DNA of 64,000 nt from Planctomycetota bacterium. Lineage in GTDB: Bacteria; Planctomycetota; PLA2. A model generated the notes under the pieces. That model made no database searches, was not told the DNA's origin, and was given only the letters and a program-made list of their open reading frames with translations. Below are positions 28,625 through 34,307 of this stretch, one piece after another. Every line of letters begins with the position of its first letter. Position 1 is the first letter of the stretch. The position numbers and the translations under genes were made by a program. Where the stretch lies: positions 994 to 64,993 of the forward strand of contig JAPUHK010000024.1 of assembly GCA_027297745.1 (NCBI GenBank), given 5' to 3'.

Positions 28625-30183
28625 TGCTGCTGGGTGCGGAAGCCTTTATCCCCGACGTCTCGGCGTTGTTCAGCCACTTCGGCGCGGAAGTCGTGCTGGC
28701 GTTGGGGATCCCCTTGCTCCTCGTGGCGGACCTGTTCACCCGCCGCAACAAGGAGTCGGTCACCGGCGCTCTCTCGCTGGTGCTGTTGACCGTCGCCCTC
28801 GTGCTCGGGCTCTGGCAGGACTCCTCCAGCAGCGTCGGTCTGACGAGCCTCTTGCGCGCGGACGGGCTGGCCAAGGGCTTCCGCGTGATCGCGCTGGCCA
28901 GCGGCGTGATCACCGCGGTGGCAGCACTGCGCGGCGGTGACGCGGTGCGCCACCGGACGGAGTTCTTCGTGCTCCTGATGGGGGCCGTACTCGGCGCCTG
29001 CCTCACGGCGGCCGCGAACGAGATGGCCATGCTGTACCTCGCGATCGAGACGCTGTCGATCGCCGGGTACCTGCTGGCCGGCTTCAAGCGGCGCGATCCG
29101 CAGGGCTCGGAGGCCGCGCTGAAGTACATCATCTTCGGCGCCATCTCCTCCGGCATGATGCTGTACGGCCTGACCTTGCTGTACGGCTTCGGCGGGACGA
29201 GCCTCTTGACCACGCCGCCGGGCGCCCCTGAAGGCACCGTTTCGCTGCAGTCCTATCTGCAAGAGAACGCCTCGGCGCTCGCCATGAAGCCCGCCTTCAT
29301 CGCCGCCGTGGTGCTGGTGTTCGCGGGCCTGGCCTACAAGATCGCCGCGGCGCCGTTCCATTTCTGGTGCCCCGACGTCTACCAGGGCGCGCCCACCTCG
29401 GTGGCGGGTTTCCTGGCCGTTGCCGGAAAGGGCGCCGGGCTGGCCGCCTTCATCCGCATCGTGCAGGCCGTCACCGGCGGCGCCGGCGACCACATCACGG
29501 ACCTCTTGGCCAGGCACAACGACGTGATCCGCACGGTGCTGATCGGCATGTCGATCGCGACCATGACGATCGGGAACGTAGCCGCGCTGCGCCAGCGCAA
29601 CGCCAAGCGGATTCTGGCCTACAGCGCCATCGCGCACGCGGGCTACATCCTGATGGGTCTCACGGTCACCAGCCGCGCGGGCGCGACGGCCATGCTCTTC
29701 TACATGGGCGTCTACGTGTTCATGACGTTCGGCGCCTTCTTCATGGTGGCGCTCGTGGAGCGCGAAAAGGGTAGCTGCGACCTGTCGGCCTTCGAGGGGC
29801 TCGGGTTCCGTGCGCCCTTCTTCGCCGTGTCCTTCGCGATCGTGCTGATCAGCCTGACGGGCCTGCCGCCGACCGGCGGCTTTTGGGCCAAGGTGTTCCT
29901 GTTCGAGGGCGTGTTCAGCTACGGCGGCGCGCACTCCTCGAGCCTGTACCTGTGGTTCGGCGTGATCGGCCTGCTCAACGGGGTCATCTCGCTGGTCTAC
30001 TACGCCCGCTTCCTGAAGGCCATGTACCTGGCCGACCCGGAGCACAACACCGGCTCCGGGCTGGAGCTCGGCCTGGCGGACAAGAGCATGGTGTTCGCCA
30101 TGACGCTGCCGCAGCTGGTGCTCGGCGTGATGTTCGCTGGGCTCTACGAGACGGCGCAGCTTCTGGTCGTGGATCTCTTCTGA
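28624..30183 (+). CDS. nuoN: NADH-quinone oxidoreductase subunit N.
   Basis: 519 aa. WCPDVYQGAPTSVAGFLAVAGKGAG motif. TGATG overlap with nuoM. Confidence 0.88.
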   Translation: MLLGAEAFIPDVSALFSHFGAEVVLALGIPLLLVADLFTRRNKESVTGALSLVLLTVALVLGLWQDSSSSVGLTSLLRADGLAKGFRVIALASGVITAVAALRGGDAVRHRTEFFVLLMGAVLGACLTAAANEMAMLYLAIETLSIAGYLLAGFKRRDPQGSEAALKYIIFGAISSGMMLYGLTLLYGFGGTSLLTTPPGAPEGTVSLQSYLQENASALAMKPAFIAAVVLVFAGLAYKIAAAPFHFWCPDVYQGAPTSVAGFLAVAGKGAGLAAFIRIVQAVTGGAGDHITDLLARHNDVIRTVLIGMSIATMTIGNVAALRQRNAKRILAYSAIAHAGYILMGLTVTSRAGATAMLFYMGVYVFMTFGAFFMVALVEREKGSCDLSAFEGLGFRAPFFAVSFAIVLISLTGLPPTGGFWAKVFLFEGVFSYGGAHSSSLYLWFGVIGLLNGVISLVYYARFLKAMYLADPEHNTGSGLELGLADKSMVFAMTLPQLVLGVMFAGLYETAQLLVVDLF

Positions 30184-30674
30184 TGAATCGCGAGGCACGC
30201 ATCACCTACTTGAACCGCGTACTGGCGGCGACGTCGAACTCGCTCTTGCAGTACATCTCTGTGGCCACGCCGTACGTGCCGCCCGAGTGCGAGGACCAGA
30301 TGGAAGAGGTCACGCGCCTGATCGACGAGGAAGCGCAGCAGGTCGCGCGCATCGTGGATCTGATCGAGGAGCGCGACGGCGTGCCGTCGGCGGGCATCTT
30401 CCCGTTCTGGAACGTCGACCTGAACTACCTCGACTTCCGCTTCCTGGCGCGCTTCGCCGCACAGAAGCAGGGCGAGATCGTGGACGGGCTCGAGCGCGAC
30501 CTCGACAACCTGCGCGGCGACCCCGACGCCTTCACCGCGGTGGGGGAGATCCTGAAAGAGAAGCGCGCGCACCTCGACGTGCTGCGCTCGTTCGCCGGCA
30601 TGGATCAGCCGGAACCCGAAGCCGCCGCGGAAGAAGCTCCCGCCGAAGCGCCCGCCGAACCCGCAGGCGAGTAG
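30184..30674 (+). CDS. Hypothetical acidic protein co-transcribed with nuoN; possible accessory subunit.
   Basis: Its ATG immediately follows the nuoN stop codon (TGATG). 163 aa with no TM helix. The Pro/Ala/Glu tail resembles the NuoB tail. No family recognised. Confidence 0.5.
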
Positions 30675-30682
30675 CCGAGCTC

Positions 30683-32320
30683 CTAGCCTGACCCTGGCGG
30701 CTTGATGCCGGCCCACCGCTCCAGGTAGGGCAGCACGACCTCACTCACCTCTTCCCGCGGGCGGCTGCCGAGGTAGCGTGCCGCCTCGCGCGAGCCCGCC
30801 TCGGGGTCGATCTGCACGAGCGCGCCGATGGCGAAGAACTGATCCCCGGCCCTCGGATGGGCGAGGAAGTCGAGCAGGATCCGTTCCGCCCTTGGGCCGC
30901 CCATCTTGCCCAGCGCGCCCAGAAGATACGGCCGCACGCCGTCCCACCCGGGGCGCAGCAGCTTGTCCTCGAAGTGAGGCGCGCCCGCGGGCTCCCGCAG
31001 TTCCCCAAGCGCGCCGGCGGCGCTATAGAAGAGACCGGCGTCCTCCGACTCCGCGACGAGGTCGAGCAGGTAGCGGCGCGTCTCCGGCGTGTCCGCAGCG
31101 CCCATGGCGCGCAGGATCGTGTAGCGCGCGGAGCGGGGGAATGCCGGATCACCGGCCGCCGTGATGAGGTGCGCCTCGTACCCGGGCGACCAGGCCTCGC
31201 GCAGGAGGCGCTCGAACCACGCGCCTTGCCTGCCTCCGCGCAGCAAGGCCAGCAGCGCGAGCAAGCCCTGCTCGCCGTGGCCGTTCAGCTTCTCGATGGC
31301 TTCGAGCGCCTCCTCGTCCAGCTTGTCTTGCTGATGCTGGTTGCGCACGGCCTCCTCTGCCTCGAGCGCTGCCTGGAGCGCCGGCGCGGGGACCTTCAAG
31401 GCCGCCGCGGCGCGCTGAAGCTTCGAGTCCCGCGTGCGCGGGCGGCCGCGCTGCTTGGCCGCTTGCTGTTTTGCAACCGGCCTCTCAGCCGAGGCGGCAC
31501 GCGCGGCGGCGAGCTGCTCGACTAGAACACGTTCGCGCTCCCGCGCCGCCTCCAGTTCCCGGTGCAGGTCAGGGCCGTGCGGCGCGCGCGCGACCCGCTG
31601 CGCCGGCTCCGCGTCCGACCTTCCGGGCAACGCGGCGCCAATGCCCACGCCGACGATTCCCGTGGCGGCGACGGCGGCGGTAACGATGGCGGCGGTCTTG
31701 TACTTCATGACTTCTCCAAGGATGAGCTGGGACGACGCGTGCGCGCAGTCGGCCAGGAACCAGGGCACCGCGAGCAGGGGAAGGGCGAGCCAGGGTGCGA
31801 GCGAGCCGAGCAGGAGCGTGCGCGCACGCTGGAGCCGCTTCTTGACGGCGGACTGCGTAATGCCGAGCAGCCCGGCTACCTCGTTTGTCGTGAGCCCTTC
31901 GAAGTAGTGCAGCACGACCGGGTCGCGGTAGCCTGCCGCAAGCCGGTCCACGCCGTCGCGCAGGCGACGGAACTCCTCGGCGCGCATGGCCGCCGCCGCG
32001 GGCGTCGGCGCCTGCGGCAAGTGTGCGAGCCGCCGGGAAAGCTCGTGTTGCCGCCGGTGTTGCGCCTTGTGCCGGTACGCGATGCGCACGACCGCCGTGA
32101 CGAGCCAGGGCATGACCGGGGCGTCGAGCGGCCCCCCGCGTTTGTGCAGTAGCGAGAGGTAGGCGGTGTGGACCGCGTCCTCAGCCTCGTCCGGCGAGCC
32201 GATGCGGCGCGCCACCGCGAGCAGCTTCGGCCGCGTCCGGCGCACGACCTCCTCGGCCGCCTCCTCGTCCGCGTCCCGCAGGTAGCGGTCGACGAGATCT
32301 TCCAGCGTCTCCCTGGCCAT
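30683..32320 (-). CDS. ECF sigma factor fused to a transmembrane segment and a C-terminal HEAT/armadillo-like repeat domain.
   Basis: N-terminal sigma regions 2 and 4 (DAVHTAYLSLLHKRGG..., LTTNEVAGLLGITQSAVKKRLQRART). A TM helix (AAIVTAAVAATGIVGVGIGAAL). A coiled coil and HEAT-like repeats. It is a single uninterrupted 545-aa frame. Confidence 0.65.
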   Translation of the reverse strand: MARETLEDLVDRYLRDADEEAAEEVVRRTRPKLLAVARRIGSPDEAEDAVHTAYLSLLHKRGGPLDAPVMPWLVTAVVRIAYRHKAQHRRQHELSRRLAHLPQAPTPAAAAMRAEEFRRLRDGVDRLAAGYRDPVVLHYFEGLTTNEVAGLLGITQSAVKKRLQRARTLLLGSLAPWLALPLLAVPWFLADCAHASSQLILGEVMKYKTAAIVTAAVAATGIVGVGIGAALPGRSDAEPAQRVARAPHGPDLHRELEAARERERVLVEQLAAARAASAERPVAKQQAAKQRGRPRTRDSKLQRAAAALKVPAPALQAALEAEEAVRNQHQQDKLDEEALEAIEKLNGHGEQGLLALLALLRGGRQGAWFERLLREAWSPGYEAHLITAAGDPAFPRSARYTILRAMGAADTPETRRYLLDLVAESEDAGLFYSAAGALGELREPAGAPHFEDKLLRPGWDGVRPYLLGALGKMGGPRAERILLDFLAHPRAGDQFFAIGALVQIDPEAGSREAARYLGSRPREEVSEVVLPYLERWAGIKPPGSG

Positions 32321-32418
32321 GGCACCCCCATAGTGCCTGCCGCGGGCGCGCGGTGACACACGTTAAGGGTCGCCTCCCCGGGCCGGACGCCGCGAGGCGA
32401 AGTCCAAGGGGCTAGGAG

Positions 32419-33474
32419 CTACGCGTCCCAGGTCAGGTTGACGGTGCCGGCGGATGCGGAGGCGAGCTCGTCGAGGCGCGCCATCATCTTGTCCGCGCAG
32501 GCGGCGAAGGCCTTGGCTGGGGCGCCGTCGGGCTGCGAGAACACGATCGGCGTGCCCTCGTCGCCGCTGGGCGTGATCGACGTGTCGATCGGAAAGCTGC
32601 CGAGCAGCGGCAAGTTGAACTTCTTGGCTGCCTTCTCCCCCGCGCCCTGCAGGAAGATGTGCGTCTCGTGGCCGCACTCGGGGCAGACGAAGCCGGCCAT
32701 GTTCTCGATCACGCCCGTCACCGGCACGCGCACCGACTGGAACATCTCGACCGCCTTCTCGACGTCGAGCAGCGCCACGTCCTGCGGCGTCGTGACCACC
32801 AACGCGCCCGACAGCGGCACGGTCTGCGCCAGGCTCAAGACCGCGTCACCGGTGCCCGGCGGCAGGTCGACCACAAGCAGGTCGAGCTCGCCCCACGCGA
32901 CGTTGGTCAACAGTTGCGTGACCATGCGCCCGACCAGTGGGCCGCGCCAGACGACGGCTTGCTGGCCCGGAGGCGTCAGGAAGGCGATCGAGATCACCTT
33001 CAGGCCGTGCGCGTTGGCGGGGATCACGCGCCGCTGCTCGTCGGCGGCCGCGCGGTGGTTGCGCGTGCCCGTCATGATGGCCGCGCTCGGCCCGTGGATG
33101 TCCGCGTCCAAGAGGCCGATCTTGAGCCCCTTGCGCACGAGCGCCGCGGCCAGGTTGACGGCGACGGTGGACTTGCCCACGCCGCCCTTGCCGCTGCCCA
33201 CGGCCAGAATGCGCTTCACGCCCTCGAGCGGCGCCGGTCCCTGCGGAGCGTCGGCCTGCGCCGGCGCCTGGAACGCTACGAACACTTCTTTCACACCGTC
33301 CAGCGTGCCGACGCGCCGCTTCACCTCTTCGGCGAAGCCCGGCTTCTGTCCCATGGGGACGTCGGTCACGACGCTGACCGTGATCCGGCCCTCCGATTCC
33401 TTGATCTCGGGGACCTGCTCGGGCTTGAGGATGTCCGCCAGCGTGGAGCGGACCTGCTCGATGCGCGTCTTCAT
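32419..33474 (-). CDS. apbC: Mrp/ApbC/NBP35-family Fe-S cluster carrier ATPase.
   Basis: Walker A GKGGVGKST. CPECGH (CxxC) cluster-binding motif. N-terminal DUF59-like domain. ATGA overlap with the upstream MBL-fold gene. Confidence 0.88.
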   Translation of the reverse strand: MKTRIEQVRSTLADILKPEQVPEIKESEGRITVSVVTDVPMGQKPGFAEEVKRRVGTLDGVKEVFVAFQAPAQADAPQGPAPLEGVKRILAVGSGKGGVGKSTVAVNLAAALVRKGLKIGLLDADIHGPSAAIMTGTRNHRAAADEQRRVIPANAHGLKVISIAFLTPPGQQAVVWRGPLVGRMVTQLLTNVAWGELDLLVVDLPPGTGDAVLSLAQTVPLSGALVVTTPQDVALLDVEKAVEMFQSVRVPVTGVIENMAGFVCPECGHETHIFLQGAGEKAAKKFNLPLLGSFPIDTSITPSGDEGTPIVFSQPDGAPAKAFAACADKMMARLDELASASAGTVNLTWDA

Positions 33475-34307
33475 CAGATGGTGACCTCCTCGCCCTTGCC
33501 GAACCCGCCCTCCTCGACGACGCGGCAGGCCGTGCAATTCACGTCGTGCTCGAAGAAGAGCGTCCAGCCCTCACGCGCGGCCTGCGACAGGATGCGCTGC
33601 TTCTCCTCCAGCGTCGACAGAGGGTTGTTGTCGTAGGCCATCACATACGGCAGCCGCAGGTGCGTCGTCGTCGGCACCAGGTCGGCCGTGTAGAGCAGCG
33701 TCTGTTCCCCGTCGCTCAGCTTCGGCAGCTGCATGCCGGGCGTGTGCCCGTCGACGACCACGACTTCGAGCCCGTCGTCCAACTTCCCGGGGCCGTCCAT
33801 CAGCCGAAAGCGGCCTTCGCGGTACAGCGGCAGGAAGTCGTCGGGGCGGAAGCTCCCGCGGTCCTTGGCCGTGGGGTCGCGCGCCCATTCCAGCTGCGAG
33901 CGCTGCACGTGGTAGCGCGCGCGCGGGAAGGTGGGGGAGCCGTCGGTGCGCGTGGCGCCGCCGGCGTGGTCGAAGTGCAGGTGCGTCAGCAGCACGTCCG
34001 TGATGCCGTCCGGATCGACGTCGGCCGCGCGCAGCGCCTCGTCGGGCATCATCCCGTCGTAGGCGTAGATGGCGTTCTTCTTGGCGTCGAACTTGTCACC
34101 GAGGCCCGTATCCACGAGCCACGTGCGCTCCGGTCCGCGCAAGACCAGCAGGCGCGCGCACATGGCGATGCGGTTGTGGTCGTCGGGCGGGTTGGTGCCC
34201 GCCCACAGCACCCGCGGCACGACTCCGAACATGGCGCCCCCGTCCAGGCCGAACGTCCCGGCTTGCACTGCGATCACTTCGTACGCGCCGATTCTCATGG
34301 GGGACAC
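33474..34307 (-). CDS. MBL-fold metallo-hydrolase.
   Basis: THLHFDHAGG (HxHxDH) metal-binding motif. The GTG start at 34307 can be replaced by the ATG at 34298. Confidence 0.8.
   Translation of the reverse strand: MSPMRIGAYEVIAVQAGTFGLDGGAMFGVVPRVLWAGTNPPDDHNRIAMCARLLVLRGPERTWLVDTGLGDKFDAKKNAIYAYDGMMPDEALRAADVDPDGITDVLLTHLHFDHAGGATRTDGSPTFPRARYHVQRSQLEWARDPTAKDRGSFRPDDFLPLYREGRFRLMDGPGKLDDGLEVVVVDGHTPGMQLPKLSDGEQTLLYTADLVPTTTHLRLPYVMAYDNNPLSTLEEKQRILSQAAREGWTLFFEHDVNCTACRVVEEGGFGKGEEVTI

Follow-up and report, generated by a model that had tools for sequence, protein, structure and literature searches.

Results

An ECF sigma factor fused to a membrane anchor and a HEAT-like domain

The DNA analyzed here is a stretch of 64,000 nucleotides (hereafter, the window) from Planctomycetota bacterium (GenBank assembly GCA_027297745.1, contig JAPUHK010000024.1, positions 994 to 64,993), and the subject of this analysis is a gene on its minus strand that encodes an extracytoplasmic function (ECF) sigma factor continued in frame by a transmembrane (TM) helix and a HEAT-like domain. 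The open reading frame (ORF) is continuous and free of in-frame stops, whether counted from an upstream GTG (30683-32359) or from an ATG (30683-32320). The full-length coding sequence (CDS; 30683-32320, minus strand, stop codon 30683-30685) specifies a protein of 545 aa and 59.4 kDa that begins with MARETLEDL and contains, from N to C terminus, the sigma domain, a hydrophobic motif termed PW..D, the TM helix, a long helix and the HEAT-like domain. The ATG at 32320 is the start common to the closest homologues, P0001 and P0002, and the orthologue P0003 (locus L130) has a GTG at the equivalent position. The upstream GTG at 32359 is an unlikely start, because it falls inside a conserved promoter-like block described below.

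An earlier reading of the letters alone (the original prediction) had proposed an ORF without stop at 30683-32320, leaving the strand unstated, and a membrane-tethered sigma factor made as a single polypeptide. Both proposals stand: the second is supported by domain searches, structure prediction, fold search and conservation of the fusion. No internal stop codon or sequencing error splitting the ORF into two genes was found. The GC content of third codon positions is 0.80-0.92 in each 25-codon interval across residues 160-240, where the sigma domain joins the TM segment, and this continuity indicates ordinary single-frame coding DNA with neither a frameshift nor a translated spacer. Independent assemblies carry the same in-frame fusion too, in about 30 non-redundant loci. 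The gene is genuine, a single one in which an ECF sigma factor, a membrane anchor and a HEAT-like domain are joined. The term “anti-sigma-like”, which the original prediction had applied to the arrangement, holds as an architectural analogy only, since no ZAS, RskA or FecR domain was detected in the protein and only about 35 residues lie between sigma-4 and the TM helix.

The ECF sigma domain (31811-32263, minus strand; residues 20-170) consists of sigma-2 (residues ~26-90) and sigma-4 (residues ~119-170, with the recognition helix ...SAVKKRLQRAR), joined by a linker of only ~30 residues. It matches TIGR02937 (sigma70-ECF) over residues 20-170 with 68.6 bits (cutoff 42.9), Sigma70_r4_2 with 48.5 bits (cutoff 25.7) and Sigma70_ECF with 26.5 bits (cutoff 21.1). 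Sigma regions 2 and 4, as originally proposed, are confirmed by the TIGR02937 and Sigma70_r4_2 matches, with Sigma70_r2 (22.7 bits) slightly below its cutoff of 24. The domain search gave no match to Sigma70_r1 or Sigma70_r3 at E<=1; regions 1.1 and 3 are absent, as in ECF group 4, and the protein belongs to this sigma-70 family group. Sequence matches of the sigma domain in the PDB are AlgU, CnrH, SigL, SigJ and SigK, and Foldseek comparison of the N-terminal half with the PDB returned sigmaE-RseA, SigK and AlgU.

The C-terminal part begins with a long juxtamembrane helix (31490-31573, minus strand; residues 250-277), modeled by AlphaFold2 with a predicted local distance difference test score (pLDDT) of ~72-82 on a 24-sequence family alignment. 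This helix is possibly a coiled coil, and a charged helix takes the equivalent place in other subfamilies of the same alignment. The HEAT-like alpha-solenoid itself (30701-31426, minus strand; residues 299-540) is predicted to be extracytoplasmic. The AlphaFold2 model shows 13 stacked helices in residues 300-540, packed as a paired-antiparallel alpha-solenoid (pLDDT 89-98). Foldseek searches of the PDB with the C-terminal half found alphaRep, a designed PBS-HEAT protein (7p0h_A, E 4e-4), as well as importin-alpha, CpcE/F and PP2A-A; the target-normalised TM-score is 0.38 for the top match 7p0h_A and ~0.6 for other alphaRep chains. Among sequence models, HEAT_2 scores 25.7 bits at residues 396-463 (cutoff 27.7) and HEAT_PBS 12 bits (cutoff 20.9), so that no Pfam threshold is reached. 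The HEAT/armadillo-like repeats of the original prediction are thus borne out as a modeled alpha-solenoid fold, whereas the sequence match remains below threshold. For this domain we infer a sensor role.

A word-indexed database search with the C-terminal domain alone returned only close relatives; an exhaustive profile search with the same domain yielded 119 representatives at E<=1e-30. The full-domain matches fall into two main classes, namely sigma-fused proteins of 530-610 aa and proteins of 320-365 aa. In the shorter class, P0044 (locus L133) and P0039 (locus L134) are products of genuine stand-alone genes with N-terminal signal anchors of their own and no adjoining sigma gene; the first gene follows a SIR2 gene and the second a CarboxypepD_reg gene. 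P0080 (721 aa) has a signal peptide and FG-GAP-like repeats ahead of the HEAT-like domain and lacks a TM helix, and in P0059 (689 aa) the domain comes after an unrelated N-terminal region of ~450 aa. Its presence in the last two proteins marks the domain as a mobile extracytoplasmic module that is not sigma-specific.

Conservation of the fusion

Full-length homologues that share the whole architecture were found at 94, 89, 69, 53, 50, 37 and 36% identity, and a scan of species-representative genomes and metagenomes added ~35 loci with an equivalent junction. Every locus carrying taxonomy comes from an uncultured Planctomycetota metagenome-assembled genome; one of these, OFTM341, has at least 3 paralogues. 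In other relatives the sigma core is 45-72% identical and the C-terminal regions differ, with TPR in one group and an uncharacterised domain in another (proteins of ~600 aa). The 24-sequence alignment shows the same pattern: the sigma core, PW..D and the TM helix are common to all subfamilies, which diverge beyond residue ~260. These relationships point to a family specific to Planctomycetota, in which the C-terminal domain (HEAT-like, TPR or other) is exchangeable.

Among the loci found in the genome and metagenome scans, none holds an unfused pair of a sigma gene and a membrane-protein gene of this family. Two kinds of candidates were considered and rejected. P0005 (336 aa, starting with MKYK) resembles a natural unfused version, but its sigma part is internally deleted and frameshifted in locus L001. 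P0034 and P0058 look like stand-alone genes, but both lie on 1.2-kb contigs, and their ORF runs without a stop to the edge of the contig and includes PWFLAD...GG.M. In L001 itself (positions 1-1621; GCA_044240405.1), the sigma domain is damaged, while the part from PW..D to the HEAT-like domain is intact and begins with an internal Shine-Dalgarno (SD) sequence and ATG. This copy has either lost its sigma part naturally or arisen through an artefact of assembly.

Some relatives lie close to further genes of interest. A second sigma-HEAT fusion of 733 aa (L003, 12218-13485, minus strand) is encoded ~5 kb from the TPR-type member P0007 on one contig, and paralogous tethered sigma factors can therefore cluster. 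Directly downstream of the distant member P0016, two HEAT-repeat proteins of 464 and 276 aa are encoded (L002, 6921-9148, minus strand), which could be its partners or targets.

A promoter-like block at the start codon

A block of ~45-50 nt before the start codon is common to the four closest orthologues, although their upstream genes differ and the flanks are unalignable. It contains a -35-like element, TGTCAC (32353-32358, minus strand), which is kept in L128, L129 and L130, where DNA further upstream can no longer be aligned, and a -10-like element, GCACTAT (32330-32336, minus strand), with 16 nt between it and the preceding TGTCAC and 9 nt between it and the following ATG. Across the family, the motif GCA[CT][CTG]AT adjoins the start codon in 28 of 36 loci, against ~0.06 occurrences expected per 170 nt searched. 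A pentamer (GAAAC, GTCAC, GAGAC or GTAAC) precedes it by 16-17 nt in 23 of the 28 loci that have the motif, and in 16 loci an in-frame GTG follows it by exactly 6 nt. This layout argues strongly for an ECF-type promoter with an AAC-type -35 element and a transcript that would start at the start codon or a few nucleotides from it. Leaderless ECF promoters are known in Actinobacteria, and a specificity code relating sigma-4 to the -35 element has been described (PMC7776599).

The -35 variants are paired with variants of sigma-4.2: TGAAAC occurs with TVRTR (11/11), GTCAC with AV[KR][KQ]R (7/7) and TGAGAC with TVTTR (2/2). A -35 element that tracks the recognition helix is what autoregulation predicts, and this is the principle behind the ECF specificity code. 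Judging from these pairs, the encoded sigma factor probably recognises its own promoter, which would amount to positive autoregulation. No sigma-70-type promoter-like site was found at the locus. Two matches resembling intrinsic terminators were found there, both within the CDS and at chance level. In the subfamily with TGAAAC promoters, an additional conserved element, CGGAAT(c/t)(g/c)T, lies ~10 nt upstream of the -35 element, directly before TGAAAC (L008-L011, L088, L092, L094-L098 and L101) and may be an extended -35, an UP-like element or an operator.

Evidence for an internal ribosome-binding site

The DNA around M205 reads CTT GGA GAA GTC ATG AAG, with an SD core, GGAG (codons GGA GAA; 31714-31717, minus strand), 5 nt upstream of an internal in-frame ATG (31706-31708). 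Initiation at this ATG would give a predicted in-frame product of 341 aa and 36.6 kDa (30683-31708, minus strand; M205-G545), in which MKYK precedes the TM helix, the long helix and the HEAT-like domain. A start inside the ORF, at MKYKTAAIV, had been raised with the original prediction as a point to check, and comparative evidence at the codon level strongly supports a conserved internal ribosome-binding site (RBS). Divergent relatives have GGA GGA, followed after 3-9 nt by ATG or GTG and then by a codon beginning with A.

We compared the 35 codons following W...D in 30 non-redundant loci with 3013 control segments of the same ORFs. An SD core with an in-frame ATG or GTG at proper spacing is present in 25 of the 30 target segments and in 594 of the controls (19.7%; binomial p 1.2e-13), and an SD match of at least 5 nt in 22/30 targets against 7.4% of controls (p 4e-19). 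The synonymous choices are also skewed. The first glycine codon is GGA in 25 of 29 loci, compared with 11.4% among all glycine codons (p 4e-20) and 12.2% for the first codon of other Gly-Gly pairs in the family genes (p ~1e-19 to 1e-20 over both comparisons); an enrichment so far above other Gly-Gly pairs shows that the SD motif is no by-product of a conserved Gly-Gly. At the nucleotide level, GGAG persists even in loci whose second residue is E, as in the present gene, or V. All 7 loci with Val and no Met at this site use GTG, for which the background is 39% (p 0.0014), and 26/29 loci have an A directly after the start codon (background 15%). Gene callers chose the internal start on both truncated contigs (P0034/L131 and P0058/L132). 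Elsewhere in the window, AGGAGG or GGAGG precedes several gene starts, and the organism therefore uses SD-led initiation. These codon-level signals strongly suggest that the conserved internal SD and ATG/GTG drive synthesis of a second, sigma-less product of 341 aa. No internal start in a sigma/anti-sigma fusion is reported in the literature searched, coverage of which is incomplete, so that the absence of reports is weak evidence of novelty.

The [M/V][K/N/T] residue pair at this site creates xTGA in the +1 frame in 26/29 loci. Programmed frameshifting onto this conserved +1 TGA, which would release free sigma, was considered and rejected: the spacer of 3-9 nt between SD and start varies freely and there is no slippery site. 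The motif would also be explained if the gene had a single product and the GGAGG-like sequence paused ribosomes, through the anti-SD or as a GGA cluster, giving time for sigma folding or membrane targeting before the TM helix emerges, or if the sequence were a relic of a two-gene operon. In favour of this reading, every member has the motif directly ahead of the TM-coding stretch, GGA is rare among the codons of the family genes, and the xTGA is the usual footprint of an ancestral ATGA overlap. Yet a pause needs no start codon, whereas ATG, or specifically GTG at the Val-only sites, is found at an SD-appropriate spacing of 4-7 nt; a relic would not retain the synonymous GGA in 25/29 loci at 30-50% identity; and gene-finding software scores the site as a start. 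We therefore regard a single product as unlikely.

Membrane segments and topology

The original prediction had counted one hydrophobic helix after the sigma domain. The helix stands, as a TM helix at residues 209-232 (31625-31696, minus strand; TAAIVTAAVAATGIVGVGIGAALP; Kyte-Doolittle hydropathy (KD) 2.01), but the present sequence has a second hydrophobic stretch, the post-sigma-4 motif PW..D at residues 168-191 (31748-31819, minus strand; TLLLGSLAPWLALPLLAVPWFLAD). In the 24-sequence alignment W187 and D191 are invariant, P186 and G202 are near-invariant, and the family motif following sigma-4 reads L.PW....LL..PW[FL]L.D. In the present protein this first stretch contains three prolines and no charged residues. 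It is TM-grade in only 2 of 31 family loci, the present one included; elsewhere it carries R, H or Q, and its median KD is 1.01. The second stretch is TM-grade in 31/31 loci (median KD 2.12), with K or R within the 8 preceding residues in 30/31; it is Gly-rich, and G224 is invariant in the alignment.

Because the second helix is always TM-grade and preceded by K/R, and because the ectodomain is seen elsewhere behind signal anchors or a signal peptide, an N-in/C-out orientation is favoured. The sequences thus argue strongly for a single-pass protein with the sigma domain in the cytoplasm and the HEAT-like domain in the periplasm. Given this topology, PW..D is best regarded as a cytoplasmic or interfacial element; it could act as an autoinhibitory or membrane-interface helix, or as a protease or targeting determinant.

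If, instead, residues 168-191 and 209-232 both crossed the membrane as a hairpin, the HEAT-like domain would be cytoplasmic and could serve as a covalent anti-sigma clamp, comparable to the soluble C-terminal extensions of ECF41/42 but held at the membrane. The first stretch of the present sequence, hydrophobic and uncharged, would allow this; furthermore, HEAT and TPR repeats are commonly cytoplasmic interaction modules, and ECF42 is regulated by a TPR extension (PMC8999054). However, the first stretch is not TM-grade in 29 of 31 relatives despite its invariant W and D, the lysines directly before the second helix in 30/31 loci fit the positive-inside rule, and the ectodomain also occurs behind N-terminal signal anchors or, in a protein devoid of TM helices, behind a signal peptide and FG-GAP-like repeats. 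A hairpin is accordingly improbable.

Genomic context

The sigma-fusion gene is convergent with nuoL/M/N and a small ORF coupled to them. Upstream of it, on the same strand, are apbC/Mrp, an MBL-fold gene and a Kelch/Big_5 gene. The original prediction had placed it downstream of the complex I-like operon and upstream of apbC; this orientation is wrong, as the gene is convergent with the nuo genes and downstream of apbC. The synteny with nuoN and the small ORF is kept only in orthologues 89-94% identical and is absent in the more distant members examined. The linkage to complex I and apbC therefore carries no functional message, and a functional tie to either was rejected as unsupported. No separate anti-sigma gene was found in the neighbourhoods of this locus and its relatives, and the domain search revealed no anti-sigma domain in the protein.

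Of the adjacent genes, apbC/Mrp (32419-33480, minus strand) has its best start at an ATG after AGGAGG (MKTRIEQV...) rather than in the longer ORF that begins with TTG. Its stop codon is separated from the sigma ATG by 98 nt, and the predicted sigma promoter falls inside this gap. The small ORF on the other side (30183-30674, plus strand; 163 aa, MNREARITYLNR...) has an ATG that overlaps the nuoN stop (TGATG) and a stop codon 8 nt from that of the convergent sigma gene. It has no Pfam match, and a gene of 161-163 aa, likewise without a Pfam match, adjoins nuoN at the equivalent position in relatives L128 and L129. Its product may serve the complex I-like operon as an accessory, so far uncharacterised.

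Discussion

A model for a one-component tethered sigma factor

Taken as a whole, the observations are best explained by a one-component, membrane-tethered ECF sigma factor with its own near-leaderless promoter and two in-frame products, an explanation that we consider rather likely to be correct. The near-leaderless, autoregulated mRNA would yield the full-length sigma factor in tethered form. By analogy with IutY, this form would be inactive until a periplasmic signal is sensed through the HEAT-like domain; the signal would then lead to trimming of the ectodomain and to cleavage by a site-2 protease within the Gly-rich TM helix, freeing a sigma domain of ~23 kDa (predicted 22.8 kDa) that would amplify its own synthesis. 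More speculatively, the sigma-less short form, expressed alongside, would be a partner or decoy and would set the threshold of activation in place of the missing anti-sigma factor, for example by pairing through the long helix or by competing for the ligand or the protease.

A more far-reaching version of this model is tentative and, to our mind, possible without being probable. Here one gene would use two start mechanisms to make two proteins, and the short form would stand in for an anti-sigma factor as a built-in negative regulator or co-receptor; mixed oligomers that withstand proteolysis would be one means. How much of each product is made would depend on the cell's capacity for leaderless as against SD-led starts. 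The cassette running from promoter through sigma core, PW..D and RBS to the TM helix would then be a portable chassis onto which periplasmic sensors are grafted, and the matched variants of -35 and sigma-4.2 would insulate paralogues from each other.

Several observations weigh against the two-product tethered model. P0022, P0024 and P0026 lack the M/V-K motif, so that M205 is not universal, and 5 of the 30 loci have no SD at the threshold chosen; the internal start is therefore common rather than universal. The SD-like motif could also serve otherwise, for example as a translational pause or as a rare-codon cluster before the TM segment. The co-variation of -35 and sigma-4.2 follows clades, and the loci are thus not independent observations. 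Within the 64-kb window there is no further copy of TGTCAC-N16-GCAC or GTCAC-N15-17-GCACYAT, and hence no regulon target was identified there. The first hydrophobic stretch is TM-grade in the present sequence (KD 1.71), which permits a two-helix hairpin in its clade, and the AlphaFold2 model is uninformative for residues 196-248 (pLDDT <50). Finally, the neighbourhoods examined contain no linked site-2 protease or partner gene.

The last point would fit a sigma factor that is active while tethered and brings RNA polymerase to promoters at the membrane, in the way of ToxR- and CadC-type regulators, with no proteolytic release and with the HEAT-like domain modulating it allosterically or by oligomerisation. 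In Planctomycetota, detergent-soluble (membrane) fractions have been found to contain ECF sigma factors (PMC8567305). On the other hand, a tether only ~35 residues from sigma-4 would be hard to fit into the holoenzyme. The TM helix is rich in Gly, one of which is invariant, and helix-destabilising residues favour cleavage by site-2 proteases. Moreover, the only characterised hybrid of sigma, TM and ectodomain, IutY, needs Prc and RseP and is activated by truncation (PMC5411451). We consider activity in the tethered state to be quite improbable. That two adjacent genes were joined by a sequencing or assembly error or by a recent pseudogenising mutation is effectively excluded: although the internal SD and ATG resemble a normal gene start and the relative L001 carries a damaged copy, the fusion recurs in independent assemblies with continuous third-position GC, the PW..D junction motif is under strong purifying selection, and P0005, P0034 and P0058 are deleted or truncated fusions.

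Membrane-tethered ECF sigma factors are the one-component systems among sigma factors, and only IutY is mechanistically understood; of the dozens of ECF sigma factors with C-terminal extensions in Planctomycetota, none has been characterised. The present locus offers a compact, searchable family signature composed of a start-abutting promoter, sigma core, PW..D, internal RBS, Gly-rich TM helix and exchangeable ectodomain. If the internal start is used, a sigma factor would be balanced against its regulator in a novel manner, by two in-frame products of one ORF in place of two genes, and automated annotation would systematically overlook a protein in each family member. If it is unused, the locus is a further example of a known architecture. 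Synthetic biology, too, could draw on the paired -35 and sigma-4.2 variants as natural orthogonal sigma/promoter pairs.

Relation to known sigma factor systems

The general kind of protein is known from IutY hybrids, from actinobacterial ECF48, ECF52 and ECF53 and from planctomycetal ECF sigma factors with variable extensions (PMC7671368, PMC7826278). Three features are undescribed in the literature searched: a common module that continues through PW..D and the TM helix, a family-wide internal RBS, and a start-abutting promoter with matched -35 and sigma-4.2 variants.

The closest parallel in working is IutY of Pseudomonas putida (FecI-like group ECF243), which is activated by Prc and then by RseP, releasing a sigma fragment of ~23 kDa (PMC5411451, PMC8999054). 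Both are single polypeptides with a cytoplasmic ECF sigma domain, one TM helix and a periplasmic domain (a prediction for the present protein), neither has a separate anti-sigma gene, and the size of the IutY fragment is close to the 22.8 kDa predicted here. IutY, however, has a periplasmic domain of the FecR type and an adjacent gene for the TonB-dependent receptor IutA, whereas the ectodomain here is HEAT-like; FecR gave no match at E<=1 in the present protein, and there is no receptor gene among the neighbours (apbC, MBL-fold, Kelch/Big_5 and nuoL/M/N). Neither an internal start nor a leaderless promoter is reported for iutY in the literature searched. By this analogy, the present protein would be IutY-like in its working, but it is not a member of the IutY group.

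In phylum, the nearest relatives are planctomycetal ECF cores with unrelated C-terminal extensions, which were described by Pinto and da Fonseca in 2020 (PMC7671368), and the group ECF57 of the 2021 reclassification (PMC7826278, PMC8999054). The likeness extends to several paralogues per genome, a conserved sigma core with unrelated extensions and an unconserved gene context. ECF57, as summarised in PMC8999054, has mostly WD40-like extensions and two conserved cysteines that link sigma-2 and sigma-4. The present protein, by contrast, has no WD40 match and no cysteine in residues 1-190, and its sole cysteine, C192, lies outside the sigma domain. In addition, the module common to the present family reaches past the sigma core to PW..D, the internal SD and start, and the TM helix. 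Since the TM helix is part of this module, the exchange point lies outside the membrane, unlike in the published model of random insertion of a sigma core.

ECF48, ECF52 and ECF53, for example SCO4117 of Streptomyces coelicolor, likewise carry, fused to the C terminus of a sigma domain, one or two TM helices together with an extracytoplasmic domain, and activation by proteolysis has been proposed for them (PMC8999054, PMC5826349). These actinobacterial proteins have a ZAS-like zinc finger between sigma-4 and the membrane, and their ectodomains are proline-rich or carbohydrate-binding. The present protein, from a different phylum, has ~35 residues between sigma-4 and the TM helix, no HxxxCxxC and a single cysteine; zf-HC2 and RskA gave no match in its domain search.

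Finally, the classical two-gene operons RpoE-RseA and SigW-RsiW share with the present family, as modeled here, an autoregulated ECF promoter, with an AAC-type -35 in most members, a membrane-spanning regulator and the logic of intramembrane proteolysis. TGAAAC, the -35 of one subfamily here, is that of Bacillus subtilis SigW. In the present family, however, there is no stop between the two parts and no cytoplasmic anti-sigma domain, and we propose that the sigma factor would be inhibited by tethering and not by occlusion. The xTGA at the internal start would fit an origin of the fused gene in a translationally coupled operon of two such genes.

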